Positions 11,819 through 26,570 of a stretch of 64,000 nt of DNA are shown here, piece after piece; position 1 is the first letter of the stretch, and the number at the start of each line of letters is the position of its first letter. The notes beneath the pieces are model-generated. The model worked only from the letters and a program-made list of their open reading frames with translations. It had not been told where the DNA came from and searched no databases. Origin of the DNA: a virus; IMG/VR virus record IMGVR_UViG_3300035396_000367, positions 1 through 64,000 of that record, one strand, 5' to 3'. Both the position numbers and the translations under genes were made by a program.

Positions 11819-14698
11819 TTATTCTACAAACCTATCACTAAAATCAGTTTTATCGTAATCCCATATCTTTAGATACTCCACGGTTGTATTCCCACCGTAA
11901 TTTCCACTTCCAGTCCACCCTGCAAATGTTAGATTAAAATCTAAAGCAGATATACCTGTTAGGTTAATTGAAGCATTTGAATCAGCGTAAATAACAACAC
12001 CATCTCTATAATACCTTACTTTGTCTGTAGTGTTACCTATCCCACTACTGGAGTAGACAAAAGCAAAATGGTATAGTGTATTAGCTACAAAAGGATTACC
12101 ATAGTGTGCCCCTTCAGAGAATTCGTATACTAAGTCTCCTGCCGTATTCCTATGCATTTTATTTAGAACACCTGTTTCACCCGTATTGGCATTGAATGAA
12201 ACTTCCCAACCCCTAGCGTAATCATAAATGTCCCCTGGAGTACCTATTATAAAAATTGCCCTATTGCTTGTACCATCCCATTTCATCCAAAATTCAATAG
12301 TAAATTCAGAGCAGTTATTTCCAACTAAGCTTGTAAAATTAGTGTATTCTACCCTGTGTGTTGTTAAGTTCGGCTTGTAACCATTCCCGAATTTACAAGG
12401 TGAGGAGCCTAGTGAAACGTCACCATAGCTTACATATCCTTTCCCCACCTCACTCTGTGGCTTACTAACGTCCATTTTATTAAATAACACTAGCCCTGGG
12501 TACGCAATACCTGCATCCAATTCTGTGTTAGCATAATTCCATATTTTGAAACTACCTATGTAACCGTTAAAAGGTGATGTATTACTTGCAGAAATTCCTA
12601 TAAAAAATCTATGCGTAAGTATTGTGTTTGTTATATTATTTACTGAAGATGCAATCTGCGTTGCTCCGTTGTATACGCGTATTCTATCTGAACCTCCCGC
12701 TATCCCATTATAATTAACCACTACCTTTAGTGTACTGAAAGCAGATGTACTTAGAGAAATTGCTGTCGATATTTCATTAGCACCCCATTTAAAGTATAGT
12801 GTAGAACCATTTATGTACATGTAATAGTTTGCATTCACAGTTCCATTTTGTGTAATCCCAAATAGATAAGCAGCTGCCGCAGTAGGAAATACTACCGGTT
12901 TTATCTTCATCTGTATTGAAAACGCATTCCCTAAACACACATTCGGATATGTTACGTAGTTACCCACAGTGTTAATAAGTGCTGACACTCCATCAAAAGT
13001 TGGGCTACCAGTAACCATCCCGGTAGGTCCAACAGTAGGATTGTTAACTTCTAGTGCACTTCCCATACCGCTATCCAAAAGTAGACCACCTGTAGGCTGT
13101 ACGTATCCGTCGGTAGATGTGCACGAGCTACTCGCTATTAAATTTTGACTAGATAAAGTCGCAGCCGTAAGATACTTTAGCATATCCAGCTTCAAGTAAC
13201 CTGCGGATGTTAACACAACTGCTCTGTTTATTCGAAACGAATACTGTATGCTAGGCGTATCCTCTTCAAAGACTAACTGCAAAGAAGAAATGCTTTTTCC
13301 AACAGCACCTGCTGTGAATGGTATTCTAAATCTATACCAAGTGTTTTTTGCTGTTGGAGAAAGTGTTATAGCATGAAGAGGTTGCGTAGTGGATTGAACG
13401 ACCATAGACAAGTTCCTTGCAACTGTTCCGTCAGAAAATGTGATGTCTACGCCCCCCTGGTATACTTGAACAGAGTCTGTTAGTGACATTAAACTCACTT
13501 CCAATACATCCCCTGTTGCGACTGTTAGTGCCATCCCGCTTGCGATTGTGTAGTACGCGTAGTGATTACCCGCAGAAGCATTATTTGTGGCTGTTAACTG
13601 TATATACCTGTTGAACGATGGTCCGCCATATTTTAACTGCATCGCTGTAGGATCGTTCTGTTCAAGTAAAACTGCTGCTACCGCTGCGTTGCTCTGATCT
13701 TCGTTCATTGCTATGAAATTGCTATACCACCCACCAAAAGATTGATAGTTAGAACTGTAGGAACTTGAGTTTGGTTGAGCACCAAGAGTCTGTGACCCGC
13801 CAATTTTGTCCGTCCTAGTCCACGTATTCGTAAAATAGTCTGTGTATGTTTGACCATTTCCGGTATAGTATACTGTAAGTATAGCTGTTTTCAATGGGCT
13901 ACCTGTTCCTGGTATCCCGTCCTTATTCCAAGAAAAAGTTACCTTATACGAACCTAGAGCTGTCGGTCCGTACGGTGCGTTTGTTCGTAAAAAAGCTGCA
14001 CCTCCGTTTGCACTTGTCCACCCTGTGAACAACCCAGCACCTGTTATACCAGTTCTATACCCTAGCCCAGCATACGGACCATACGTTAAATTTGGTGTAG
14101 AAATGTACCAATACCCTTTGTAACCATCCGGAGCGAAGTCGAAACCGTAGTTCCCATTCGTGAAATGATTATCCGCAGTAGCACATGTATTTGACAAATG
14201 CCAAAGCCAGTTGGTCGCTAGTTGGTTTGGTGTTACCCAGAAACTTATCGTACCTTTTGCAAGTGACATTTTTCTGTTCATTAGCATGTGAAATATATGG
14301 TTAGAACCTGATCCACCGCTGCTGTCAGGGTATATTCGCAATGAGTCGTATGTTTTTGGAAGTGGGCTGTCCGGCCTCTCTATAGCTGTAACAACGTCTA
14401 GCGACATATCGTCATTCGAGTTTGAACCAAGCGCACCAGCATAATATGTTTTAATAATACTATTAGGATCACCTACAGTCGGCGATGCAAATGATTGGGA
14501 CCGAGGGAAATGAGTTAACTCGTTCCCTTTGCAATAAAAAACTACTTCAGGTGGCAACGAAACTTCAGATACTTTTTCTATACCGTTCTCTGTTTGTTTC
14601 CACTCCTCTTTAACTTTCGTTAAAGATACTTCATCCTGTACCCACTTTTCACGTACATCTTGAATACTGCTTATACCTCGAACAACCGTCTTACCCAT
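11819..14698 (-). CDS. Virion fibre/adhesin with about 3 LamG (concanavalin A-like) domains
   Basis: 959 aa, rich in G/S/T/N. Repeated LamG signatures GTISFWVTP, FSIQMKIKP...FNGYIGSFKIWN and FTIEFWMKW...YHFAFVY...YLKIWD. Confidence 0.75.
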   Translation of the reverse strand: MGKTVVRGISSIQDVREKWVQDEVSLTKVKEEWKQTENGIEKVSEVSLPPEVVFYCKGNELTHFPRSQSFASPTVGDPNSIIKTYYAGALGSNSNDDMSLDVVTAIERPDSPLPKTYDSLRIYPDSSGGSGSNHIFHMLMNRKMSLAKGTISFWVTPNQLATNWLWHLSNTCATADNHFTNGNYGFDFAPDGYKGYWYISTPNLTYGPYAGLGYRTGITGAGLFTGWTSANGGAAFLRTNAPYGPTALGSYKVTFSWNKDGIPGTGSPLKTAILTVYYTGNGQTYTDYFTNTWTRTDKIGGSQTLGAQPNSSSYSSNYQSFGGWYSNFIAMNEDQSNAAVAAVLLEQNDPTAMQLKYGGPSFNRYIQLTATNNASAGNHYAYYTIASGMALTVATGDVLEVSLMSLTDSVQVYQGGVDITFSDGTVARNLSMVVQSTTQPLHAITLSPTAKNTWYRFRIPFTAGAVGKSISSLQLVFEEDTPSIQYSFRINRAVVLTSAGYLKLDMLKYLTAATLSSQNLIASSSCTSTDGYVQPTGGLLLDSGMGSALEVNNPTVGPTGMVTGSPTFDGVSALINTVGNYVTYPNVCLGNAFSIQMKIKPVVFPTAAAAYLFGITQNGTVNANYYMYINGSTLYFKWGANEISTAISLSTSAFSTLKVVVNYNGIAGGSDRIRVYNGATQIASSVNNITNTILTHRFFIGISASNTSPFNGYIGSFKIWNYANTELDAGIAYPGLVLFNKMDVSKPQSEVGKGYVSYGDVSLGSSPCKFGNGYKPNLTTHRVEYTNFTSLVGNNCSEFTIEFWMKWDGTSNRAIFIIGTPGDIYDYARGWEVSFNANTGETGVLNKMHRNTAGDLVYEFSEGAHYGNPFVANTLYHFAFVYSSSGIGNTTDKVRYYRDGVVIYADSNASINLTGISALDFNLTFAGWTGSGNYGGNTTVEYLKIWDYDKTDFSDRFVE

Positions 14699-14701
14699 AG
14701 T

Positions 14702-15343
14702 TTAAACCACCACTACATTTAGTAATGAGTCCGCTGGCCAACCACTTCTAATTGTTCCGTTGACAGTCTTCAGCTCCTGGATTGTTTGTGCAGCCTCTAT
14801 AACCAGTGTCTTAGCGTACTCTATTTGAAAACAGGAGTGTACAAAAATGTTAGCTGCCCTACACACCGTACCCATATCTTCCTGAGACATATGTACCCAA
14901 GAATTATCAAAAAGTTTGAACATCTCTGCTACATACAATCCGCTTACTATTGCTAGATACTTTGCAGTTAACGTACTTCTTGACTCTCCATCCACATCGA
15001 TCTTCACTTTTGACAAGTCAGCTAATGTAACTTCAATTCCCGATGCTTCGTACTCCTTTCTCGTTACCTTTAAGCTTTCTAGTACTTCTCTCTTTACATC
15101 AGCTAATGACCTTTCCAATACGCTGTATGTTGCAACAACAGTCTTATTCAACGCATCAATCTCCCAAAGGTCTAGCGGGTTAACCTGAAGCTGTTGGTAG
15201 AACTGGTCCACTGCTACACCGGAATGCACAACAGGGTATATACCTATTTTTGTAAAATCAAAAGGTGAACCATCGAAACTCTTCTTTGCAGGTAACGAGA
15301 GTAGCGTTCTTACCACTACGTTGTTTTTTACTTCTGCGTACAT
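14702..15343 (-). CDS. Tail fibre assembly-type protein (DUF4376-like)
   Basis: SLADVKREVLESLKVTRKEYEASGIEV...DGESRSTL...FKLFDNSWVHMSQEDM...HSCFQIE matches the DUF4376 pattern; adjacent to fibre genes. Confidence 0.7.
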   Translation of the reverse strand: MYAEVKNNVVVRTLLSLPAKKSFDGSPFDFTKIGIYPVVHSGVAVDQFYQQLQVNPLDLWEIDALNKTVVATYSVLERSLADVKREVLESLKVTRKEYEASGIEVTLADLSKVKIDVDGESRSTLTAKYLAIVSGLYVAEMFKLFDNSWVHMSQEDMGTVCRAANIFVHSCFQIEYAKTLVIEAAQTIQELKTVNGTIRSGWPADSLLNVVVV

Positions 15344-15352
15344 AACTTACCC

Positions 15353-15787
15353 TCACTCAGCTTTATTTAGATAATACGCGTGTATTATATCTTCAGTACC
15401 CGGTGCTACCATATCTTTCCATTCTTCGTTTCCGGCATTTAAAGAATTTCTAATCGATGTAGCAGATATGTGTTCAAATCCTGAACCTTTAATTTCTTCA
15501 ATCTTGTACCCTACGTCACGCCCGTAGTATATACCCTCTACATCAGGTACTACCATTGCTGTACCGTGTATCCCTTCTTTCTTCATCCATAGCCCGATCA
15601 TTTCAACTCGTACACTGGCTGGAAACAATTCAGATGTGTCTCTCACAAGTATTAAAACAGGCAAACCCTTCTGAGTCTGCATAGACTGGATTATCCCTGA
15701 GTGTCCTTTATGGAACGGAACATACCTGCCAAGAAACATTATATGTTTCCCTTTAGCTTGTTCTTCTGTTGAATAATTCTTAAACAT
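15353..15787 (-). CDS. HxGH-family nucleotidyltransferase (cytidylyltransferase-like); candidate minimal ATP sulfurylase
   Basis: FLGRYVPFHKGH (HIGH motif), IYYGRDVG, ISATSIR. Start placed at ATG 15787 (GGAG 7 nt upstream; 8-nt overlap with cysC); the ORF track starts at 15832. Confidence 0.8.
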   Translation of the reverse strand: MFKNYSTEEQAKGKHIMFLGRYVPFHKGHSGIIQSMQTQKGLPVLILVRDTSELFPASVRVEMIGLWMKKEGIHGTAMVVPDVEGIYYGRDVGYKIEEIKGSGFEHISATSIRNSLNAGNEEWKDMVAPGTEDIIHAYYLNKAE

Positions 15788-16286
15788 GGATACACTCCAA
15801 TATGTATTTTTTAAACTTTTCGTAGGATACATCCACAGTCTCTACACCTGTGTCTACAGTTAAATCTGGATTAAGCGGAGTTTCGAAAGGTGAGTCTAAA
15901 CCTGTGAAGTTTTTAATCTCACCTGCCAAAGCTTTTTTATACAAACCTTTTGTATCCCTACCTGCACACACTTCAAAATTAGCTGCAACATGTACTACAC
16001 GGCAGTTTTGTATAATTGACTTAGCCAATTCTCTAGATGCATGAAATGGAGATATAAATGCAGTAATAACATTCATCCCGTTATCATTAAACAGTTTACA
16101 AACTTCCGCAATTCGTCTCAAGTTCTCTGTACGGTCAGCTTCACTAAAACCTAAGTTGTTACAAAGTCCTTTACGTATTTCATCACCATCCAGAACAACT
16201 ATATTTTTTATCTCTGACTTTAGCATATTCGCTAAAGTAGATTTACCGCTACCTGACAATCCGGTAAGCCAAAAAGTGTGTGACAT
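15780..16286 (-). CDS. cysC: Adenylylsulfate (APS) kinase
   Basis: FWLTGLSGSGKSTLA, LDGDEIRKGLCNNLGFSEADRTENLRRIAEV, AFISPF, RDTKGLYKKALAGEIKNFTGLDSPFETP. Confidence 0.96.
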   Translation of the reverse strand: MSHTFWLTGLSGSGKSTLANMLKSEIKNIVVLDGDEIRKGLCNNLGFSEADRTENLRRIAEVCKLFNDNGMNVITAFISPFHASRELAKSIIQNCRVVHVAANFEVCAGRDTKGLYKKALAGEIKNFTGLDSPFETPLNPDLTVDTGVETVDVSYEKFKKYILECIHV

Positions 16287-16296
16287 TCGTATCTCC

Positions 16297-16335
16297 TACT
16301 TTATAAAGTATACCATCTAACTTTATAATTTCCAA
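16297..16335 (-). promoter_or_regulatory. Sigma70-like promoter for cysC with an overlapping 14-bp palindrome
   Basis: TTGGAA (16330-16335), 17-nt spacer, extended -10 TGgTATACT (16307-16315). Perfect palindrome TACTTTATAAAGTA at 16297-16310. Confidence 0.45.
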
Positions 16336-16907
16336 CCGAAATATTCAATCTCAGTCTCGCACAACTGATTGACGATAGCTACAGCCTCATCCGTGTATAG
16401 ACCCATGTAGTTATATGCCGGTGTGACATTTAGACTTCGCATACTGACGGATGGTCGTAACATATTCCTTTTTTTTAGAAGTTCCCCAACCTCATCGTCA
16501 AGGTTATCATAATCTATTATTATATCTACTGTTTTCTCACCAGCTTCAGTCAGAATATACTTTGTCTGATCCATGTACATCCATCGATTTATCTCGGTGT
16601 CTGACTCCAACTTATCCTTCCGCAACTTTAAAAATGAAACAAAATCCTCTGGGAATCTTTCAAAACCTGCGTTCTTGTGTTTCAAAAAACTGTAATACGA
16701 CGCTATACGCCTGTAACAATTACGTACAACCGTAAATTTTATGTAGTGTTGATACTTACATCTAAGTTCCTCGGTATCTAACCAGGAGTGTTTATTCCCT
16801 TCCTCACGTTTATCACCGTCTAACAAACCTAGGTAACTACGTAGTGATGTACCCCCTGACTTAGGTATGTGTATGAACAACATTTTGTTTCTGTTAAGTA
16901 CAAGCAT
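16323..16907 (-). CDS. PAPS-dependent sulfotransferase (Sulfotransfer_2 family)
   Basis: 5'-PSB motif FIHIPKSGGTS and 3'-PB motif FTVVRNCYRRIASYY, with typical downstream motifs (DFVSFL, DQTKY, YDNLDDE, EIEYFGW). Confidence 0.9.
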   Translation of the reverse strand: MLVLNRNKMLFIHIPKSGGTSLRSYLGLLDGDKREEGNKHSWLDTEELRCKYQHYIKFTVVRNCYRRIASYYSFLKHKNAGFERFPEDFVSFLKLRKDKLESDTEINRWMYMDQTKYILTEAGEKTVDIIIDYDNLDDEVGELLKKRNMLRPSVSMRSLNVTPAYNYMGLYTDEAVAIVNQLCETEIEYFGWKL

Positions 16908-16937: not shown

Positions 16938-19900
16938 TTAGTCTACTATGTACCACACATCTCCGTAGCTACCACCCGAAGTTGGTGCCACAGTTACTAT
17001 GCTAGTTTTTGGAGTACCCTTCGGACCAACGATACCATCATGTGTAACTACTAGGTTACCGGGTGCAATCGAACCAGCGTACACATCTTTATTCTTTGCA
17101 ATAACAACGTCCAGTGTTGTACCTAAGAAAGCTGTCATGTATGCCGACATAAGGTAGTAATAGTCAAAGTACCCATATACTCCACCAAAGTTGAACCTAA
17201 CTAGCCCATTGTTTGAGTCACTTGCAAAGTCAGACCATGCACCGTCTACTGGTTTGAATCTTACCTCACCGTAACTGCTGGTAGAACCATAACTACTGAA
17301 TATATCCTGTGAACCAGAAGCACCCGAAGTTATCCAAGCTTCACCGCCGGTATACAGGAAAACACCATCGGTAGCACCACTACCTATAACCAAATTAGCC
17401 GGTGTATCCACATTACCGGATGGGTTTACTAGCGAACCATCATCCCCGAACTTGTAGGAAGACGCCTCCACCAACATTAGAGCCCAGTTGCTTGCGGATA
17501 CCGCAGGAATGTTTCCTATGTTTCCCAAGTCTATACTCCTGTAAAGACACCCTTTGTAGGATATTATCTCGTCTCTTCCGTAGGGTATAGCGACGTTCCA
17601 CTCTGTCAATCCCGTTAAAGGAATTTTTTGCCAAATAGCACTACCTATATCTGCACGTAAACATTTGTATATGTGTGTAGCGTTACCAACACTTGATACA
17701 AGGGTAGAGGAAGGGGTATAACCCTTAGACAAGTCATCTGTGACTGCAGGTGGTACCGGTACATTGTTTAACTCTAAACCAGAAGCAGTTATTAGAAAAG
17801 TATATACCTCCATGTCCAACGTATATGGGTTTTGGTACCCATAACCATAATCGTAATAATCACCAGCTGTAAAAGTCCCACTAACTACCTGCACCCCTCT
17901 ACCAGTTGTACCACCTTGTGAGAATTTTAACTTATTATCACCAGCCCATAGCTCTTTTACAAGTCCGGAGTAGTATGCGTACTCCATCTGTGTTGTAAGT
18001 ATGCTAAAAATGCCAGGAGATACCTCACCAATATCAGAAATAATACCATTGATGCCTTCTATAGTTTTTTCAACTGTTAGTGTCGCTGGACTTAAAACAA
18101 GGATATTACTTAGTTGCGCTATATTTGCGGCCTCCGAATCACCTTGTGTAGGAGTGTAACCAATCAATAATTTCTGTTGTAAACTATCGTACCGAAGTCT
18201 AACTACGTCAGCCTGATGTATACCGGATGTACCACCGTACACTTTCGCAGGTTTTTTTTGACTCGTATGTGACAAGATTGTCGTAGCAGAAAATGAACTG
18301 CCGTCCAAGTTAACCCTACAAACAACTAAGCTTGTCTGCAACGTAACGTCAATCACACCCGCTACAGCCGCAAAAAACACATAGTTACCGTCTGTCGCCA
18401 TAGGGACTGATGCGCGTAAGAATGTTCCTTGATGATAACCACCTAGATTGTTATCTGGAACTACACCACCTTTAAATGAACCAAGCGGAACATATACAGG
18501 ATGCGCTGAATCGGATACAGTTATAGAAGAACCGTCAAACGAAATACGAACTATGTGTACGGTAGCACCTGCAGCTGTTGTGTCCTTCATGTACGACATA
18601 AACACTTCACCGGAAGATACGTTAAGTAATTCTATACCACCTAGCATGGTCTCAGAACCAACCCCTGGTAATGGTACCTCGTCTAACGTAGTACCAGTAG
18701 CTGAACACACCCGCAGTAATACAGTATCCCTATCAACGCCTGAAACACCTACCAACAATATGTCACTGGATGTTATCAAAGTTGCGCGGACTACCGTATA
18801 AAACCCAGTAATTGTACTTAACAAAGTATCTTGATCATCGTATAACTTAACACCGTCAAGAGGATAAAAAACACCTTGATTTTTTGGCATGTCATGTACT
18901 GTATACGCTGCGTAAAGTAAGTACCCACCTGTGTATTGCGTACCGGGTATTACGCCGCTATGTACCACGTGTCCATTCTGGAGTATATCACCTTGGTGAA
19001 ACCAAATAGTGTAACTCTCGTAACCGCCATACTCGTGCTTCAAGTACCAGCTAACGTACCCATCCTCCGCCGTAGCGTCATACTCTAAATTATTGTACTG
19101 GTTAAGTATGTAGGTCATGTAACCTGGGCCTAGGAGAATCTCAAACGGATCTGATTCCAACGCGCCCATTAGTACACCGTACGTAAGCCAATCTGCATCA
19201 GCGACAGATGGGTTGTGCGTGTTTGCTACTCGTAGCCGCCTATTCAATAGAACAAGGTCACCTCTATTATACCCTGTGATCAATGCTATATCCGTTTTAC
19301 CGGCCGTCCACGTAGAGTAATTCTTTGGATCGTATATAACTGAACTCCCGTACAGTTTTACTTCTCTGTAAAATGAGACGTTACCGGAGTCATAATCCAG
19401 CAAATAGACCCTATCACCAGCTTCATTAAGCATATGCTTAGGGTACTCATTTATATCGCGAGGCTCACTCAGCAACTTTTCCATATGCGTGGTTGTTATA
19501 CCAAACTCTGTGAACCCACCTCCGTTACCACGACCTTTAGCTCTCCATATTCTTACACCTCGTTTTCGAAGCGTGCCCTCCGGCCTAACATCTGTCAAGT
19601 TCGCTATTTCTTCCAGTCCACCAACTGCCAACCAGTCGTAACCTGAACCACTCTTTACCTTAAAGAATACAAACTTATCATCTGCAGATGCTGCTAAAAT
19701 CTCCAGCCCTTTATCTAATGTCGATGTAATCGCAGGCGGTGTACCATTAAAATAAGAAACCATATTCGTATCTGAATATGTTTGTAAAAAATTAACGCTT
19801 CTAAATGGCGTTATACGACCTAATGGAAAGTATACCTCACCCATCCCAAAAGCACTACGTGTACCCTGCTTTATGTAGGAGGACGCTGGCCCTATATATT

Positions 19901-22900
19901 TCCATTGTGCAGCGTCGGAGTACTCAAACCAGTCTCTCCTTGTCTCAGCACCTGTACACTCGTAGACGTTCCAAGAACCATCAGCAAGATTATTTAGTAC
20001 TAGAGTACCTACTGTGTAAAATGTAGTTCCGTTTGTTCCGGTGTACAAATGTTCCCATTCAGAGCCTGCATGTGTAACCCACGCAACTGCAGGGGATGTC
20101 TTCTGCAAATCTTTAGGCACGTATGACCATATAGCCGCACCAGCTGTATTCGAAACACATAACCAGTAACCTAATGGCCAGATCCAAATTGAACCAACCT
20201 TATAACCGCTATTTACGTCGGATGTTACAGATGGTGACTTTGTAGAATCTGTATACGAATCAACGAAACAACTAACCCACACTCCAGAACCATTGTGTAT
20301 GAAAAGTTTTGCAGAACCTGTAGAGTACCAGAATGTTCCTACCGGATAACCATCCGCTTCATTTTCCATAACTGTAGGATCTGAAGCACTCTTTACAAAG
20401 TTATCAGATAGTGCTTTCCATACTGATGAGTTACCAGGAGTAGCACCCTCAGTGTACGTAAGTGAAACGTACAGTTTTTGACTGTAGTAAACAACTCTGT
20501 TTGATTTATAAAACTCGTCTGCACGCCACTCTGTTACAGTTGACTCAGATAAAGCAATCTCTTTTGATTCTGTACCTAATCCTAGTCTTACAACTGATGA
20601 ACTAATTTTACTTATGTCACCTAACCCTAACCCGGCTAATGATTCGTTAACTTTCTGCGATTTAGTAATATCTACGTATAGAGTATTGTTTACGCTGCTA
20701 TTAGTAAATAGCACTGCTTTTAACTGCGAGTCACTTATACTCAATAGAATGTATGAAGTTGTTGAAGCACCTATTTTTATCTGCACATCGCCTAATAGCG
20801 CAGCACTAGACCCTATATAGGTTACAGTCTTCATAGACTTAATTGTCTGTCCATCAAGTGAAACATCTACAAAACTTTTAAACTGAGTGTAGGGTGTGTT
20901 AACAAGAGAAAGATTTTGACCGTATACGTGAGTACCTATAGCATCCCACACGCTCCTTTCCGTACAGGTACCATTACCCGCATCTATGTACTCTGTTATA
21001 GCACCTTGCATAGCTCCCTGGTACGATCCTACGTGTCTTCCAAAGAATGCACCAACACCAGCGTTAAGTCCGAATAATGTGTATGGATTTCCAGAATCAC
21101 CCTCCACCTCATACACAAATGTAGCTGCGAAAGGAGCTCCATTTGGGTTCAATTTAATTAGTACATCTCTCCTGTACGATGTTCCGTATATCTTTTTCGT
21201 AACTATAAACGCTAAATCACCAGCACCTGTATTCGGGTGGCTAAATACAATCGGATTATCTCTAAAACTCCAACCGGAACCAGCTGCGTATGACGATGTC
21301 CCTAAATAAACACCAGAGCTTGTGTAACACCAAAATGTCGTCGTAGCACCATTTAAGTAGAAGTACAGATGGTTACCTTGCACAAAAAACCCACTTGGAT
21401 TATTTGGGAAGTCTGTGTTTGTAGTAACAACAACCGTAGACCCTGAAAGTATAAAAGTCACATGCCGGTACGACTGACCGGTTATTGAACAAACAAGTAC
21501 TTTTTTACCATCCTTAAACCCAAACGCTGATGCACCATTAACGCCGGATACGTTGTATGTTGTTAGAGTTGGTGATACAAAAGTATTTCCATAGTAAGCT
21601 ACCTCTACTGACGTTCCCACTGTCAGCTTGGATACACCTACCAACCCACCGTCTATCAAATGATTCCATATGTTTGAAACTGTTGTTAGCATAGGATTAG
21701 CATTCGACACGGACCACGTGTCTGTAGTATCCCCGGATATGTCTAAATACTTTTCAGTAAAAGCGTCCCAGTACGAACCATCTTGAGGCTGCTGATTTAT
21801 ATTATTAGTTTTACATCGCCAAGTAACTCCCGCGTATAAAACAAATTCACCCTCTGTATAGTTTAAACTGCTAGACCACTCTTTGTAAGTATTACCGATA
21901 GAGGACACTGCTTCTGAAATTAAATCAGCATAGTAAAACCTTTTCCAAAACGCATCACCTACCGAGGAAGAAATACATATGTACTCACCATATATGGAAC
22001 CTGTTGAGTAGCCTAATGTGGAGTCATCCTGTTTAGCAGGAGTTACGTATCTTTCTGATAAATCAGTTTGAAATAGCAAGGAGCTATCCACTGATTCCAG
22101 CTTTACTATTATGTCTAGATTCCCTGTGGATGTATTAAAGTAATTAACAGATACTAAACAGTCACCAATTGTTCCTACAGCTTGTGTCAACTCTCCCTTA
22201 TATCTTATCTCACCATCCTCCAGTACTGCCTGATGTAGTACTCGGTTACTGTCAGTATAGAGTATGTGCAGGAATGATTCACCTGTGGCTCTCTTTAGTA
22301 CGACCAGTTGAATAGATACATACGTAAATGAAAAATCATACTCTACGTAGGATCTGTCCGTATTAACTTCTACTATTTTTGATACGTTACTAAATGCTAA
22401 AAAGAATTTACCATCTGCACTGTTTGCAGCACCAGCTACTGGTATTGCGTCTGCCCAGTTTAACAAGTCTACGTATGACGGAGCATTTGTAAAACCACCT
22501 GTAGCGTAAAAAACAATTCTAGAATCAGGAGGTGTTGATGTAAAACTTTTGTAAGCAAATAATGCATTTTTCCCAAGAGAGGTACCGTCAACAACTGGAA
22601 CGAACTCAGTTGCTAAAGCAATATTACCAAGGCTTGTATCCTCCGTTATATCGGCCCCATTATTTACAGCGAATAGTTGAACTTTACTCTGATCAGAGTT
22701 CCATAAAGTTAACGCTGTGTAACCACTTTGTGATAATTTCGAACCGAGTATACTAAAGCTGTATGCGTACCTATTGGACCATGAGCTAAGTACGCCACCA
22801 GCCTGTACCGACTGCTTTGTTGCCCACTGTAGTTGACTATTTACTCTCCACAATTTTATTCTATCTGCGTCAGAAAACTCAAAATCAAAAAAGGATATAC

Positions 22901-25900
22901 CTGAAACATCATATTCCTCTTCGTACACAAAATTTCCTGAGAGTTTGTATATCGTAGTACCGTACTTTATGTAGAATATATTTGTATCAGCAATCTGCCG
23001 AATTAAATCTGGTAGAATAGAAACTGTTACACCACCCATACCTTTAAACGTTACAAGTCCTATGTTTTTGTTTAAACCTATTCTATTAAAATTAGAAACT
23101 GTATGCTTTAATGAGCCTTGTGCTATACTTACCCACACCGCAGATCCAACTGTTGCGTCCACGCAAATGAAAATACTTGTTCCGTTTACCCAGTGGACAC
23201 CCACCGTGTGCCCGTCTAACTCGTCATCATTGACTGTCGGATTACTTGAGGATGTAAAAACCGATGAACCACCAACCTTATGCCACGATTGCGAATAGAA
23301 TATGTAACAATCAGAACCGTAGTACCATAGGGAACCGTTTTCGTAAAGTGTGTCACCTAACCCCGGGGCTCTCTCCCCGTACACTACTTCATTTTTACCA
23401 TTAGGTATAAGCACTCCATCTTTTATAAAGTACCCTTCATTTGACACTAACCTTACAAAATATCCGTACAGTGGAAATGATGCTGGTATCACATCATATA
23501 GTGTATCGGATACAATAGACGTTACAGTATCAGAAGTAAATATCGAAAACTCAACACCAGGATCTACAGAGTTACTGTTTGATACTAGAGAACCTTCAAC
23601 TACTTCCGCTGTATAGTTTGAAACTAACTTTTCCTTTACTACTGCAGTAGTCGAAACTCCAAATTTAAAAAGTGAGGAGTGTACACCAACCGAAACTGTC
23701 TCCCACGCAGCTGATGTCCCAGGTACATCGGATGTGTTCTCCAAGCATTTATACCAACCACCGTTGTAGCTGAATACCCATCCACCAATCCCGGTACCGG
23801 AGAACGATATTACAGAAGCCTGCTGTTTTAAACAGTAAGCTGCACCTTTCTTGTACAGAACCGATGAATAACTTATTGGAATATCAGTCTCTACTTCACC
23901 CAGTATTGCACCTGTAGCTGAGTCATAATCGTACTCATAAATTGTGAACTTTCCATAGTACCCGAAAGCAATTGCGAAACCTTTATCTGTAGGTGCTATT
24001 GATATTTTTGACAACGGTACAGTATACACACCCGAAGCGAACGCAACATCCCAGAAAAAGTCTACATCTGTAAACATGTCCGATATTTCTGTCAACGCGG
24101 ATTGTGTTGGTAAATCCACCCTACCTGTCCCATCAAATACATAAGTGACAAGTGTGCTAGTTGAACCGTACAAAGTAGCTGCATAGTAACCTGAGTAAAT
24201 AACCCGCCCTTTGCTGTAACTACTTACTGCGTGTACAAGATTTGCTGTTTGTGCACTACTAATAACTGCACCGGTGTAATCAACATACGTGTAAGTGAGT
24301 GTGTTACCTAAATACATGGATTGGGATGAGTGACACGGAAGAATTAAAAGTATCTTTCCACCTACAGAATAAACACGAATCATGTCCCTAAAATAGCTAA
24401 GCTGTGCCCCATCTATTTTTGTTCCGAAGTAACCAAACAAAGGTGTACGTGTAGTAATAGTAGTTAGTGAACCACCAACCATTGTTGCAGTTTTCAAATA
24501 AGCATTGTCGTGTGTCGCAGTTACGAATAGTAAAAATAGTTTTCCATTAGCAACTGTTATATCACATAGAAAATCTGCGTAGGCAACAACCGTGTCAGCG
24601 TCTACTCCATTTGAGAAAGTCACTCCGGATACAGAGCTAACCCACAACCACATAGTACCTTCAAATAAGAAAGATCCACTAGAAAATGCTGTAGCAGTTA
24701 TTGAGTCAACCAGTGTGCTCGTCATCGAAACATCTGCCTCTATAGAGCTGTCGTTTTGAGAAACGTTTACCCACACTGACGCACCTGTAGCTTTAACTGT
24801 GCAGATATATACTACACCCTCTTCAGTAACCCAAATAGTTCCTTCATCATACGTATCATCTGTCACTGACGGTGCTACCAATTTATCAGCTAATGTAATT
24901 GCTGAAACCTTAACCCAAACTGCTGAACCAACTAGTGAAGAAGAACAGTAATACACTGATGACGATGTAAACCATAGTGACCCCTTCGCGTAACCTAAAT
25001 GCGCGTCATCGCTATTTGTAGGGTTCGAAGTTGCACCGTACTTATTAGTTCCTCCGGATATCTGTACCCACGCCGCTGACTTATTGCTAGAACTAACGCA
25101 GAAATAGATCACACCACGGTATACTGAAAAGTCCCCTGACTTATACCCAGAGGATTCGTTATGAGCTAATGACGGAAGAACAGTCATGTCATGAATTGCT
25201 GATGTAATTTTTACCCACTTCGAACCTGTTGAGTCTGAGAATACACACAGGTATGTAGCTCCGTTAACACAGGATGTACTCCCTACACTGTACCCATTAG
25301 ATAAATTCATAGATGAATCTGGGTACTTTTCTACGCTCGCGTATGTTACAACTGCTGCATGTGTAGACAATGCGTCAACACCTACAAACCAAATACTGGA
25401 TACGTCCTCGGATGGAAGAATATCTCTTAGGCTGTATATGTTTGGTGCTAACCCTGAACCAGATTTTTCTAAAGCTAAACTCTCTTTAGAGATAGAAAAG
25501 ACATTTAAGTCTGTGCTGAATATGCTGAACAAATTAAATACGTTACCGTTTTCAACAACTTCAAATTTTGCTGGCTGTGTGTTAGAAACTATCTCCTTTA
25601 CTTCCCCAATGCTACCTCGGTGTAACCCTACGTGAGCACCTTTCACCTTCAGGTTAGTTCCCTGGAAGATAATAGTACCAGATACAAGATTAAATGCGTA
25701 ATCTGTTCCTGAGAATAACTTTGCAGCTTCACCTATGTATTCGTCAGGGCATACAGTTTCAAGCAAATAGTTTACAGAAGTTTTGTACAAACCATTTTGT
25801 GTAACCATACCTCCGCCGGCAGGACCTATTTCCCCGTATAATGTTGTTACAAGATTAGCTTTTGCTTCTGACCCTTTATATATAGAGCCATTCTTAGTCA

Positions 25901-26570
25901 ATACTGCCGTAGCGTATGTACCTTCAAACGCAGTCCTGAAAGCAGTTTCATCATAATAATAACTTGGCGTACCTGTACCGTTTCCGAAATCAAATGTTTG
26001 AACACCATTAAAAGACTTATCAGCGAAAACACTCCAATTATTTTGAGATGCTGGCAACATCTTAATTGAGAAAACAGTAGGTGGAACACCAGGTACACTT
26101 CCACCTGGTGTTATTGGATCTTCTCTCCACGCTCGAACCGTACCCACGCTACCTGGTACCAACCCTTGCGCAGTTGTTAGATAAAACTTATCCCAACCCC
26201 AGTGCATTGTTGGATTACCCTCTACTGTAAGTCTTACCCACTCCTTACCGTCTTCAATAGAACCCATAGGTATCAAGTTAGCTGCTGTTGGATTTGCACT
26301 CGTTGGATTATTTAGTGGAGCAACGTCGTATGCTGTAAAATTTTCAACCGGAAAAGTAGCTATAACTTCTGCACCAAAAACTATTAGCACCGTTCCGTTA
26401 TCATCTACGTTCACATCCATGTTTACAAGACTCTTGTGTTCTGTCTCGTAAATTATTGAGTTAGATATTTCGACACCAGTATCCAGCCGCTTGCGTATAA
26501 GTCGTATCGAGTTACCCTCTATAGCAGCCGTGTATATAACTTCATTTTTAATTATTGTCTTAGTACTCAT
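16938..26570 (-). CDS. Giant tail fibre/adhesin (3,210 aa) with CBM5/12-like and PTxxDD-GY-W repeats
   Basis: Rich in S/G/T/V/Y. About 10 copies of P-x3-DD-x3-GY-xx-GS-x-W...Y-x-C...AVW and several W-x5-Y-x2-G-x2-V-x-Y-x-G modules; C-terminal APTSGGSYGDVWY; located in the tail gene cluster. Confidence 0.75.
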   Translation of the reverse strand: MSTKTIIKNEVIYTAAIEGNSIRLIRKRLDTGVEISNSIIYETEHKSLVNMDVNVDDNGTVLIVFGAEVIATFPVENFTAYDVAPLNNPTSANPTAANLIPMGSIEDGKEWVRLTVEGNPTMHWGWDKFYLTTAQGLVPGSVGTVRAWREDPITPGGSVPGVPPTVFSIKMLPASQNNWSVFADKSFNGVQTFDFGNGTGTPSYYYDETAFRTAFEGTYATAVLTKNGSIYKGSEAKANLVTTLYGEIGPAGGGMVTQNGLYKTSVNYLLETVCPDEYIGEAAKLFSGTDYAFNLVSGTIIFQGTNLKVKGAHVGLHRGSIGEVKEIVSNTQPAKFEVVENGNVFNLFSIFSTDLNVFSISKESLALEKSGSGLAPNIYSLRDILPSEDVSSIWFVGVDALSTHAAVVTYASVEKYPDSSMNLSNGYSVGSTSCVNGATYLCVFSDSTGSKWVKITSAIHDMTVLPSLAHNESSGYKSGDFSVYRGVIYFCVSSSNKSAAWVQISGGTNKYGATSNPTNSDDAHLGYAKGSLWFTSSSVYYCSSSLVGSAVWVKVSAITLADKLVAPSVTDDTYDEGTIWVTEEGVVYICTVKATGASVWVNVSQNDSSIEADVSMTSTLVDSITATAFSSGSFLFEGTMWLWVSSVSGVTFSNGVDADTVVAYADFLCDITVANGKLFLLFVTATHDNAYLKTATMVGGSLTTITTRTPLFGYFGTKIDGAQLSYFRDMIRVYSVGGKILLILPCHSSQSMYLGNTLTYTYVDYTGAVISSAQTANLVHAVSSYSKGRVIYSGYYAATLYGSTSTLVTYVFDGTGRVDLPTQSALTEISDMFTDVDFFWDVAFASGVYTVPLSKISIAPTDKGFAIAFGYYGKFTIYEYDYDSATGAILGEVETDIPISYSSVLYKKGAAYCLKQQASVISFSGTGIGGWVFSYNGGWYKCLENTSDVPGTSAAWETVSVGVHSSLFKFGVSTTAVVKEKLVSNYTAEVVEGSLVSNSNSVDPGVEFSIFTSDTVTSIVSDTLYDVIPASFPLYGYFVRLVSNEGYFIKDGVLIPNGKNEVVYGERAPGLGDTLYENGSLWYYGSDCYIFYSQSWHKVGGSSVFTSSSNPTVNDDELDGHTVGVHWVNGTSIFICVDATVGSAVWVSIAQGSLKHTVSNFNRIGLNKNIGLVTFKGMGGVTVSILPDLIRQIADTNIFYIKYGTTIYKLSGNFVYEEEYDVSGISFFDFEFSDADRIKLWRVNSQLQWATKQSVQAGGVLSSWSNRYAYSFSILGSKLSQSGYTALTLWNSDQSKVQLFAVNNGADITEDTSLGNIALATEFVPVVDGTSLGKNALFAYKSFTSTPPDSRIVFYATGGFTNAPSYVDLLNWADAIPVAGAANSADGKFFLAFSNVSKIVEVNTDRSYVEYDFSFTYVSIQLVVLKRATGESFLHILYTDSNRVLHQAVLEDGEIRYKGELTQAVGTIGDCLVSVNYFNTSTGNLDIIVKLESVDSSLLFQTDLSERYVTPAKQDDSTLGYSTGSIYGEYICISSSVGDAFWKRFYYADLISEAVSSIGNTYKEWSSSLNYTEGEFVLYAGVTWRCKTNNINQQPQDGSYWDAFTEKYLDISGDTTDTWSVSNANPMLTTVSNIWNHLIDGGLVGVSKLTVGTSVEVAYYGNTFVSPTLTTYNVSGVNGASAFGFKDGKKVLVCSITGQSYRHVTFILSGSTVVVTTNTDFPNNPSGFFVQGNHLYFYLNGATTTFWCYTSSGVYLGTSSYAAGSGWSFRDNPIVFSHPNTGAGDLAFIVTKKIYGTSYRRDVLIKLNPNGAPFAATFVYEVEGDSGNPYTLFGLNAGVGAFFGRHVGSYQGAMQGAITEYIDAGNGTCTERSVWDAIGTHVYGQNLSLVNTPYTQFKSFVDVSLDGQTIKSMKTVTYIGSSAALLGDVQIKIGASTTSYILLSISDSQLKAVLFTNSSVNNTLYVDITKSQKVNESLAGLGLGDISKISSSVVRLGLGTESKEIALSESTVTEWRADEFYKSNRVVYYSQKLYVSLTYTEGATPGNSSVWKALSDNFVKSASDPTVMENEADGYPVGTFWYSTGSAKLFIHNGSGVWVSCFVDSYTDSTKSPSVTSDVNSGYKVGSIWIWPLGYWLCVSNTAGAAIWSYVPKDLQKTSPAVAWVTHAGSEWEHLYTGTNGTTFYTVGTLVLNNLADGSWNVYECTGAETRRDWFEYSDAAQWKYIGPASSYIKQGTRSAFGMGEVYFPLGRITPFRSVNFLQTYSDTNMVSYFNGTPPAITSTLDKGLEILAASADDKFVFFKVKSGSGYDWLAVGGLEEIANLTDVRPEGTLRKRGVRIWRAKGRGNGGGFTEFGITTTHMEKLLSEPRDINEYPKHMLNEAGDRVYLLDYDSGNVSFYREVKLYGSSVIYDPKNYSTWTAGKTDIALITGYNRGDLVLLNRRLRVANTHNPSVADADWLTYGVLMGALESDPFEILLGPGYMTYILNQYNNLEYDATAEDGYVSWYLKHEYGGYESYTIWFHQGDILQNGHVVHSGVIPGTQYTGGYLLYAAYTVHDMPKNQGVFYPLDGVKLYDDQDTLLSTITGFYTVVRATLITSSDILLVGVSGVDRDTVLLRVCSATGTTLDEVPLPGVGSETMLGGIELLNVSSGEVFMSYMKDTTAAGATVHIVRISFDGSSITVSDSAHPVYVPLGSFKGGVVPDNNLGGYHQGTFLRASVPMATDGNYVFFAAVAGVIDVTLQTSLVVCRVNLDGSSFSATTILSHTSQKKPAKVYGGTSGIHQADVVRLRYDSLQQKLLIGYTPTQGDSEAANIAQLSNILVLSPATLTVEKTIEGINGIISDIGEVSPGIFSILTTQMEYAYYSGLVKELWAGDNKLKFSQGGTTGRGVQVVSGTFTAGDYYDYGYGYQNPYTLDMEVYTFLITASGLELNNVPVPPAVTDDLSKGYTPSSTLVSSVGNATHIYKCLRADIGSAIWQKIPLTGLTEWNVAIPYGRDEIISYKGCLYRSIDLGNIGNIPAVSASNWALMLVEASSYKFGDDGSLVNPSGNVDTPANLVIGSGATDGVFLYTGGEAWITSGASGSQDIFSSYGSTSSYGEVRFKPVDGAWSDFASDSNNGLVRFNFGGVYGYFDYYYLMSAYMTAFLGTTLDVVIAKNKDVYAGSIAPGNLVVTHDGIVGPKGTPKTSIVTVAPTSGGSYGDVWYIVD

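Follow-up and report, generated by a model that had tools for sequence, protein, structure and literature searches.

A three-gene phage sulfation cassette whose small nucleotidyltransferase is a candidate ATP sulfurylase of a third kind

Gene layout of the sulfation cassette

The window analyzed here is the first 64 kb (positions 1 to 64,000) of the 91.7-kb viral record IMGVR_UViG_3300035396_000367, a record about 49% complete by CheckV, and our subject is a sulfation cassette of three co-directional minus-strand genes that encode a sulfotransferase, an adenosine 5′-phosphosulfate (APS) kinase (CysC) and a small nucleotidyltransferase of the HIGH superfamily, the last a candidate ATP sulfurylase. 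The phage is an uncultured microbial-mat phage; one public sequencing run, a microbial-mat DNA metagenome and possibly the source sample, contains the stretch, and no RNA run is listed for it. All large open reading frames (ORFs) of the window are carried by the minus strand. The sulfotransferase gene (P0001, Sulfotransfer_2, 194 aa) lies at 16323..16907 (−) with its ATG at 16907, the cysC gene (P0002, 168 aa) at 15780..16286 (−), and the nucleotidyltransferase gene at 15353..15832 (−) when the longest ORF is taken (P0003, 159 aa) or at 15353..15787 (−) from the preferred start (P0005, 144 aa, with an HxGH motif). Upstream, the stop of a 3,210-aa ORF call for a putative fibre or structural protein (16938..26570, −) is 30 nt from the sulfotransferase start, and downstream, a DUF4376 gene (14702..15343, −; Pfam E = 1.4e-9; PHROG 10508 “tail fiber protein”) begins 9 nt past the nucleotidyltransferase stop and is followed by a gene for a 959-aa Laminin_G_3 protein (11819..14698, −; Pfam E = 1.9e-13). 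These ORF positions and family matches agree with an earlier note on this DNA, read from the letters alone, which had placed three consecutive genes between the 3,210-aa gene and the DUF4376/LamG genes.

A Shine-Dalgarno sequence is present ahead of all three cassette genes, that of the sulfotransferase ATG being GGAG. The nucleotidyltransferase ATG at 15787-15785, which is Met16 of the longest ORF, has a GGAG Shine-Dalgarno 10 nt upstream and forms an 8-nt overlap, ATGTTTAA, with the stop of cysC, and the public gene call for this protein is also of 144 aa. It is most likely that translation starts at Met16. The HxGH motif and the overlap with cysC described in the earlier note were borne out, with the overlap being 8 nt and not the 53 nt of the longest ORF. 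The other gaps in the cassette measure 30–36 nt, and the three genes are probably translationally coupled and transcribed with the late structural genes. The 3,210-aa protein is a putative “fibre” by its size and position; it matches no Pfam family, and its C-terminal 2,000 aa have no tblastn match in 50,697 phage records. No close phage relatives of the cassette were found by blastn against the phage records.

The sulfotransferase and the APS kinase

P0001 matches Pfam Sulfotransfer_2 (PF03567) at E = 1.2e-10 and 42.4 bits, above the gathering cut-off of 22 (41.4 bits in a six-frame search), and PHROG 3347 “galactose-3-O-sulfotransferase” at E = 5e-9. It bears a 5′-phosphosulfate-binding (5′-PSB) loop HIPKSGGTS of the PKxGxT type and a 3′-phosphate-binding (3′-PB) motif VVRNCYRRIAS of the RxxxxRxxS type, and the motifs that bind 3′-phosphoadenosine 5′-phosphosulfate (PAPS) align to those of heparan sulfate (HS) 6-O-sulfotransferase 5t03; HS 6-O and 2-O sulfotransferases are its nearest solved relatives. 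Among 11 aligned sequences, the sulfotransferases of related loci, R62 and S70 are invariant and VRNxxxRxxS is kept, and the conserved dipeptide HS (KHS in P0001) is a candidate for the catalytic base. Its sequence marks P0001 as a divergent member of Sulfotransfer_2 in which the PAPS-binding motifs are intact. Inspection of the sequence revealed neither a signal peptide nor a membrane segment, and P0001 is thus taken to act in the cytoplasm. Matches to P0001 are rare: only 2 of the 50,697 phage records have one, and a word-index homology search returned one distant match only.

P0002 scores 193.9 bits against TIGR00455 (equivalog cut-off 138.7) and E = 4.9e-54 against PF01583 APS_kinase. Its motifs are the P-loop GLSGSGKST, LDGDEIR, NLGFSEADRTENLRR, FISPF and the lid KGLYKKALAGEIKNFTGLDSPFE, so that the P-loop, LDGD, DRxENxRR, FISP and KGLY...FTG lid of APS kinases are all present in alignment with PAPSS2. 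In the PDB it matches the human PAPSS2 and PAPSS1 kinase domains best (E = 5e-40), and its distance to human PAPSS is about that of bacterial CysCs. These sequence features identify P0002 as a genuine CysC, and the identities that had been proposed for both enzymes hold.

The small nucleotidyltransferase and its fusions to APS kinase

P0005 carries the motifs GRYVPFHKGH (with the HxGH as PFHKGH), VLILVRDT, PDVEGIYYGRDVGY and ISATSIR, and the motifs across its relatives read GRxxPxHxGH, VLIxVRDT, IPDIxxxxYGRxVGY and ISATxIR. A family profile searched against 1.84 billion representatives recovers 743 clusters at E ≤ 1e-10 and at least 3,145 when the limit is relaxed to E ≤ 1e-3. A full-length CysC-like kinase is joined to 38 of the best 149 cluster representatives, 27 in the order kinase-nucleotidyltransferase and 11 in the reverse order; a further 6 are fragments that retain the C-terminal end of the kinase, and in 11 the kinase is a short one. 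The fused relatives retain every APS kinase motif, and the only public name for these fusions is “adenylyl-sulfate kinase”. In the 26 closest metagenome loci, where the nucleotidyltransferase is 40–47% identical to that of the window, a CysC of 37–59% identity to the window's CysC adjoins it in 18; in five of the other eight the gene lies within ~200 nt of a contig end. The co-occurrence of CysC and nucleotidyltransferase in related genomes, which had been put forward as a check, is thus evident, the two being fused or adjoining in most relatives.

The relatives of the cassette reside in glycan-biosynthesis clusters. The nine closest loci have 68 neighbour ORFs, and the Pfam family met most often in them is Sulfotransfer_2, with 5 members (best E = 1.2e-21); the other neighbours include GDP-mannose dehydratase, epimerases, GT8, GT25, GT2, methyltransferases and sulfatase. 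When P0001 seeds an iterative search, 17 of 239 related loci prove to contain sulfotransferase-like ORFs, and in three of these (L038, L039 and L177) such an ORF is 3–6 nt from the nucleotidyltransferase gene. The expected co-occurrence with sulfotransferases is thus evident too, but weaker than that with CysC.

Two further observations concern the neighbours and domain partners of the family. Two sulfatase and three radical-SAM genes are found among the cassette-neighbour ORFs (L166-L190), a hint that these clusters also turn over or mature sulfated glycans. Moreover, a metagenomic protein of 432 aa (P0140) combines the nucleotidyltransferase domain with a sub-threshold match to DHHA1 (E = 7e-5). 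The DHHA1 family includes 3′-phosphoadenosine 5′-phosphate (pAp) phosphatases and pyrophosphatases, and the DHHA1 part of P0140 could be a pAp phosphatase or pyrophosphatase partner.

Because the family is fused to CysC in both orders and neighbours sulfotransferase and glycan genes, we consider it fairly probable that the 144-aa protein is a miniature ATP sulfurylase of a third kind, a candidate put forward from sequence and gene context. The adenylyltransferase fold described below and the lack of Sat and CysD both in the record and in a 96%-complete phage with a CysC fusion (below) favor this reading, as do two weak signals, the DHHA1 fusion and the few relatives that pass the ATP sulfurylase model. 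An adenylyltransferase together with a kinase for the 3′-OH of its product would fit the layout of a PAPS synthase and, by analogy, that of phosphopantetheine adenylyltransferase (PPAT) with dephospho-CoA kinase. With the 144-aa enzyme as an ATP sulfurylase, the whole cassette would make PAPS without host APS and sulfate an acceptor, likely a carbohydrate, and this wider reading we hold with moderate confidence. The pathway is of a known kind, its first step probably being carried out by a previously undescribed enzyme family. The “self-contained” pathway of the earlier note thus holds only if the 144-aa protein is an ATP sulfurylase, as suggested by fusions and context and not by homology to Sat or CysDN.

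Relationship to NMNAT and Sat

Several observations weigh against these readings, and the first of them concern P0005 itself. No curated family matches P0005 above its cut-off; the matches to CTP_transf_like, HIGH_NTase1 and NMNAT models are weak (NF002243 31.9 bits, cut-off 127; TIGR01527 for archaeal NMNAT 25.6 bits, cut-off 181.2). The ATP sulfurylase model PF01747 gives 12 bits, below its gathering cut-off of 24.3; a few relatives do pass it (P0006 with 29.1 bits, P0057 with 26.0 bits), which speaks weakly for the sulfurylase reading. The sulfate-binding QxRN of Sat (QxRNPxHxxH) is not in P0005, where the HxxH part is present and the Q and RN are not. The GRD in P0005 (YYGRDVGY) has a D that varies among G, K, E and D in fused relatives, only the G-R being invariant, and a Sat GRD loop as family signature was rejected since the D is not conserved. 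In a profile search of PDB sequences with the P0005 family, NMNAT is the best match (E = 5e-16), and Sat is absent among the best 60 matches. By its sequence, P0005 is not a Sat-type ATP sulfurylase by homology.

The fold gives a similar picture. An AlphaFold (AF2) model of P0005 built from a 61-sequence alignment has a predicted local distance difference test (pLDDT) of 91.3 and a predicted template modeling score (pTM) of 0.83 (a 6-sequence alignment had given a pLDDT of 69). The model is closest to archaeal nicotinamide mononucleotide (NMN) adenylyltransferase 1f9a (Z = 14.0, root-mean-square deviation 2.6 over 129 residues), followed by PPAT (Z = 12.4), NadD enzymes (Z about 10) and Sat-type ATP sulfurylases (1v47 Z = 9.2, 2gks Z = 8.5, 1x6v Z = 7.2, over ~134–143 residues). 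NMNAT is therefore much nearer to P0005 than Sat is, by sequence and by fold, and the match of the predicted structure to the Sat catalytic domain is a shared superfamily fold and not proof of function.

In an alternative that we regard as unlikely, CysC and the sulfotransferase would use APS from host CysDN or Sat, and the small nucleotidyltransferase would serve NAD salvage as an NMNAT/NadM-like enzyme or adenylylate some other small phosphorylated or anionic substrate. NMNAT/NadM genes are common in phages, archaeal NMNATs share the motifs GRxxPxHxGH and ISxTxxR...W with the P0005 family, many family members stand alone and P0005 falls under every curated cut-off, PF01747 included. Archaeal NadM-type NMNAT (M. 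jannaschii, 1f9a; M. thermautotrophicus, 1ej2), with which the motifs GRxQPFHxGH and SxTxIR...W are shared, is the best match of P0005 in sequence and fold. However, there is no reason for an NAD enzyme to be fused to an APS kinase in both orders, as in 38 of the 149 representatives, or to lie beside sulfotransferases, and the score of P0005 against the archaeal NMNAT model is far under the cut-off of that model. In a profile alignment, the 33-residue segment 77-109 of 1f9a, which connects strand 4 to the C-terminal subdomain and which we take to be part of the NMN site of the archaeal enzyme, is 8 residues in the P0005 family, so that the part marking the NMNAT substrate side is deleted. The family differs from archaeal NMNAT also in its new invariant residues, R49, P81-D82 and G89-R90-x-V-G-Y94 (P0005 numbering), and in its genomic partners, which are APS kinase and sulfotransferases and not NAD genes.

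The remaining points against a candidate ATP sulfurylase and a self-sufficient cassette come from the family and the genome. Of the 149 representatives, 62 stand alone, and at some loci there is no kinase at all; host APS could supply CysC and the sulfotransferase without a phage sulfurylase; and no paper describing the nucleotidyltransferase family was found in a literature search. It had been noted that no glycosyltransferase is visible in the window, and this extends to the 91.7-kb record: searches for GT1 and GT2 were negative there, about half of the genome being missing, and a Pfam scan of 42 other ORFs of the record matched 28 families, of which the 25 listed include no glycosyltransferase. 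No glycosyltransferase or other acceptor-building gene was thus found in the record. Finally, tblastn detected in the 239 related loci no homologue of seven structural proteins of the window, including the fibre, DUF4376 and LamG proteins. With 0 of 239 loci, the linkage to tail or fibre modules that the earlier note had expected in relatives is not supported, and the fibre-gene linkage is unique to the window phage.

Proposed pathway and sulfate acceptor

In the pathway that we favor, the NMNAT-like 144-aa enzyme would first join ATP and sulfate to form APS and pyrophosphate. CysC, assigned by homology, would then phosphorylate the 3′-OH of APS to give PAPS, drawing the unfavorable first step forward, and the cytoplasmic Sulfotransfer_2 enzyme, its class also given by homology, would move the sulfate of PAPS to an acceptor. 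The acceptor would most likely be a carbohydrate, either a precursor of host envelope or exopolysaccharide or a glycan destined for the virion, and the outcome would be sulfation during infection independent of the sulfate-activation enzymes of the host.

A carbohydrate is favored as the sulfate acceptor over virion protein or DNA because of the relatives of the sulfotransferase and the contexts of related cassettes. Accessory genes often insert in tail-fibre regions, and the position of the cassette alone is therefore no pointer to the virion.

The same glycan contexts bear on a different possibility, that the kinase and the nucleotidyltransferase build a PAPS-like donor of another group (3′-phospho-nucleoside diphospho-X) which the “sulfotransferase” passes on. 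In the O-methyl phosphoramidate pathway of Campylobacter, the CysC homologue Cj1415 phosphorylates cytidine diphosphoramidate (PMC11800397), so a CysC homologue acting on a non-sulfate nucleotide is known in C. jejuni, and relatives of the cassette lie in capsule-like glycan clusters with methyltransferases. The phosphoramidate pathway of C. jejuni, however, also requires Cj1418, a glutamine kinase, and Cj1417, an amidohydrolase (PMC11800397), and neither family is among the listed Pfam families of the record. The window CysC, moreover, is about as near human PAPSS as bacterial CysCs are, and the transferase bears the canonical PAPS 5′-PSB and 3′-PB motifs. We therefore consider a non-sulfate donor quite improbable.

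It is also conceivable, at a very low probability, that the genes form an auxiliary metabolic module that raises assimilatory sulfate reduction in the host, with PAPS used for cysteine and no target sulfated. Lists of viral auxiliary metabolic genes commonly include cysC and further cys genes, and CysC is present in other phage records. Yet the first gene of the cassette is a PAPS-consuming sulfotransferase, the relatives lie in glycan clusters, and PF01507 (PAPS_reduct/CysD) was not found in the 91.7-kb record, nor was Sat (PF01747). Because no PAPS or APS reductase is in the record, sulfation fits better than sulfur assimilation, and the argument that had been made from the window on this ground extends to the whole record.

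Distribution in phages and bacteria

A CysC-nucleotidyltransferase fusion of 269 aa is encoded by an IMG/VR phage (L003) whose 180-kb genome is 96% complete, and neither Sat (PF01747) nor CysD (PF01507) was found in this genome. The fusion lies within a glycan cluster (L003:1707-7061) comprising GDP-mannose 4,6-dehydratase, an epimerase, FkbM, O-methyltransferases and two glycosyltransferase-like genes; a helicase adjoining the cluster bears a LAGLIDADG insertion.

In a more distant branch (~35% identity), the nucleotidyltransferase is paired with a short APS-kinase-like protein of 135 aa. In phages of Xylella, Xanthomonas and Stenotrophomonas the two are fused as PHROG 10255 “kinase”, for example in gp35 of Xylella phage Sano (L001:5584-6321) and in Stenotrophomonas phage DLP6 (L002:5590-6321), both short P-loop kinase-like/nucleotidyltransferase fusions of ~245 aa; no sulfotransferase is annotated near these two fusions within the stretches examined. 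An overlapping pair of the short kinase (135 aa) and the nucleotidyltransferase is also found on the Pelagibacter chromosome NZ_CP172842.1 (L107:5552-6333), placed amid core metabolic genes. Of 101 sampled Pelagibacteraceae genomes, 55 contain the nucleotidyltransferase family (E ≤ 1e-33) and 4 contain canonical Sat (PF01747); an unpublished genome in the sample (G055) shows a weak match only and carries no claim. Sat, true CysD and true CysH were not found in five complete Pelagibacter genomes. P. ubique possesses AprBA (PMC2211403). AprBA beside the Pelagibacter pair was considered and rejected, the downstream ORFs being a DAO/GCV_T enzyme and an ORF with a sub-threshold match to DUF4864.

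A broader proposal would cover all of these occurrences: that a third class of ATP sulfurylase arose from an NMNAT-like ancestor and is widespread in phages, archaea and bacteria, and that the window phage makes its own PAPS and, late in infection, sulfates a host-surface glycan or its own giant fibres. To this proposal as a whole we give about an even chance.

Other large genes of the record

The window also holds a single ORF of 6,934 aa (window 43559-64000, running on to 64363 of the record), with ORFs of 2,798, 1,462 and 3,210 aa downstream of it. Among these four proteins only that of 2,798 aa has a Pfam match, to CBM_5_12 repeats. One of the 42 other ORFs of the record matches Pfam Volactin (PF25216), an actin-like family, at E = 2.8e-63.

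Comparison with known sulfate-activating systems

The nearest parallel in logic is provided by PAPS synthases and Sat-CysC proteins (human PAPSS1, 1x6v; Aquifex aeolicus, 2gks; Thiobacillus denitrificans, 3cr8), in which the same two steps are carried out by a HIGH-superfamily HxxH nucleotidyltransferase and an APS kinase in either order. The window CysC shares homology with the kinase domain of PAPSS, and P0005 superposes on the Sat catalytic domain with Z of 7–9. In contrast to these proteins, P0005 has 144 aa against ~350–400, lacks the PUA-like N-terminal domain as well as QxRN, and is nearer in sequence to NMNAT.

In rhizobia, NodPQ and NodH, and in other sulfated-glycan clusters the corresponding genes, place a dedicated PAPS supply (CysDN/CysC) beside a carbohydrate sulfotransferase. 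A similar cluster for a sulfated capsule is the subject of PMC11641403. The window cassette differs from NodPQ/NodH in having a miniature HxGH enzyme for the GTPase-driven CysDN, and in being phage-borne and located in a structural-gene block. Phage-encoded sulfotransferases have been listed in metagenome surveys as auxiliary metabolic genes (PMC8290583, PMC10829341), and PHROG 3347 is such a family; unlike the genes in those reports, which come with no PAPS-supply genes and no mechanism, the sulfotransferase here has CysC and a candidate sulfurylase as coupled partners.

Implications

To our knowledge, only two enzyme types, Sat and CysDN, are known for sulfate activation. If the reading of P0005 as an ATP sulfurylase is true, an enzyme of 120–145 residues would be the smallest ATP sulfurylase known, and sense could be made of thousands of proteins whose present labels are “adenylyl-sulfate kinase” or “cytidylyltransferase-like”. 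The sulfur metabolism of genomes annotated without sulfate activation would have to be seen differently, and biocatalytic sulfation would gain a compact source of PAPS made of two genes. The presence of the cassette in a structural-gene block raises the possibility that phages sulfate the envelope glycans of their hosts or their own virions, and such sulfation would bear on receptor masking and adhesion in mats rich in sulfated polysaccharides.

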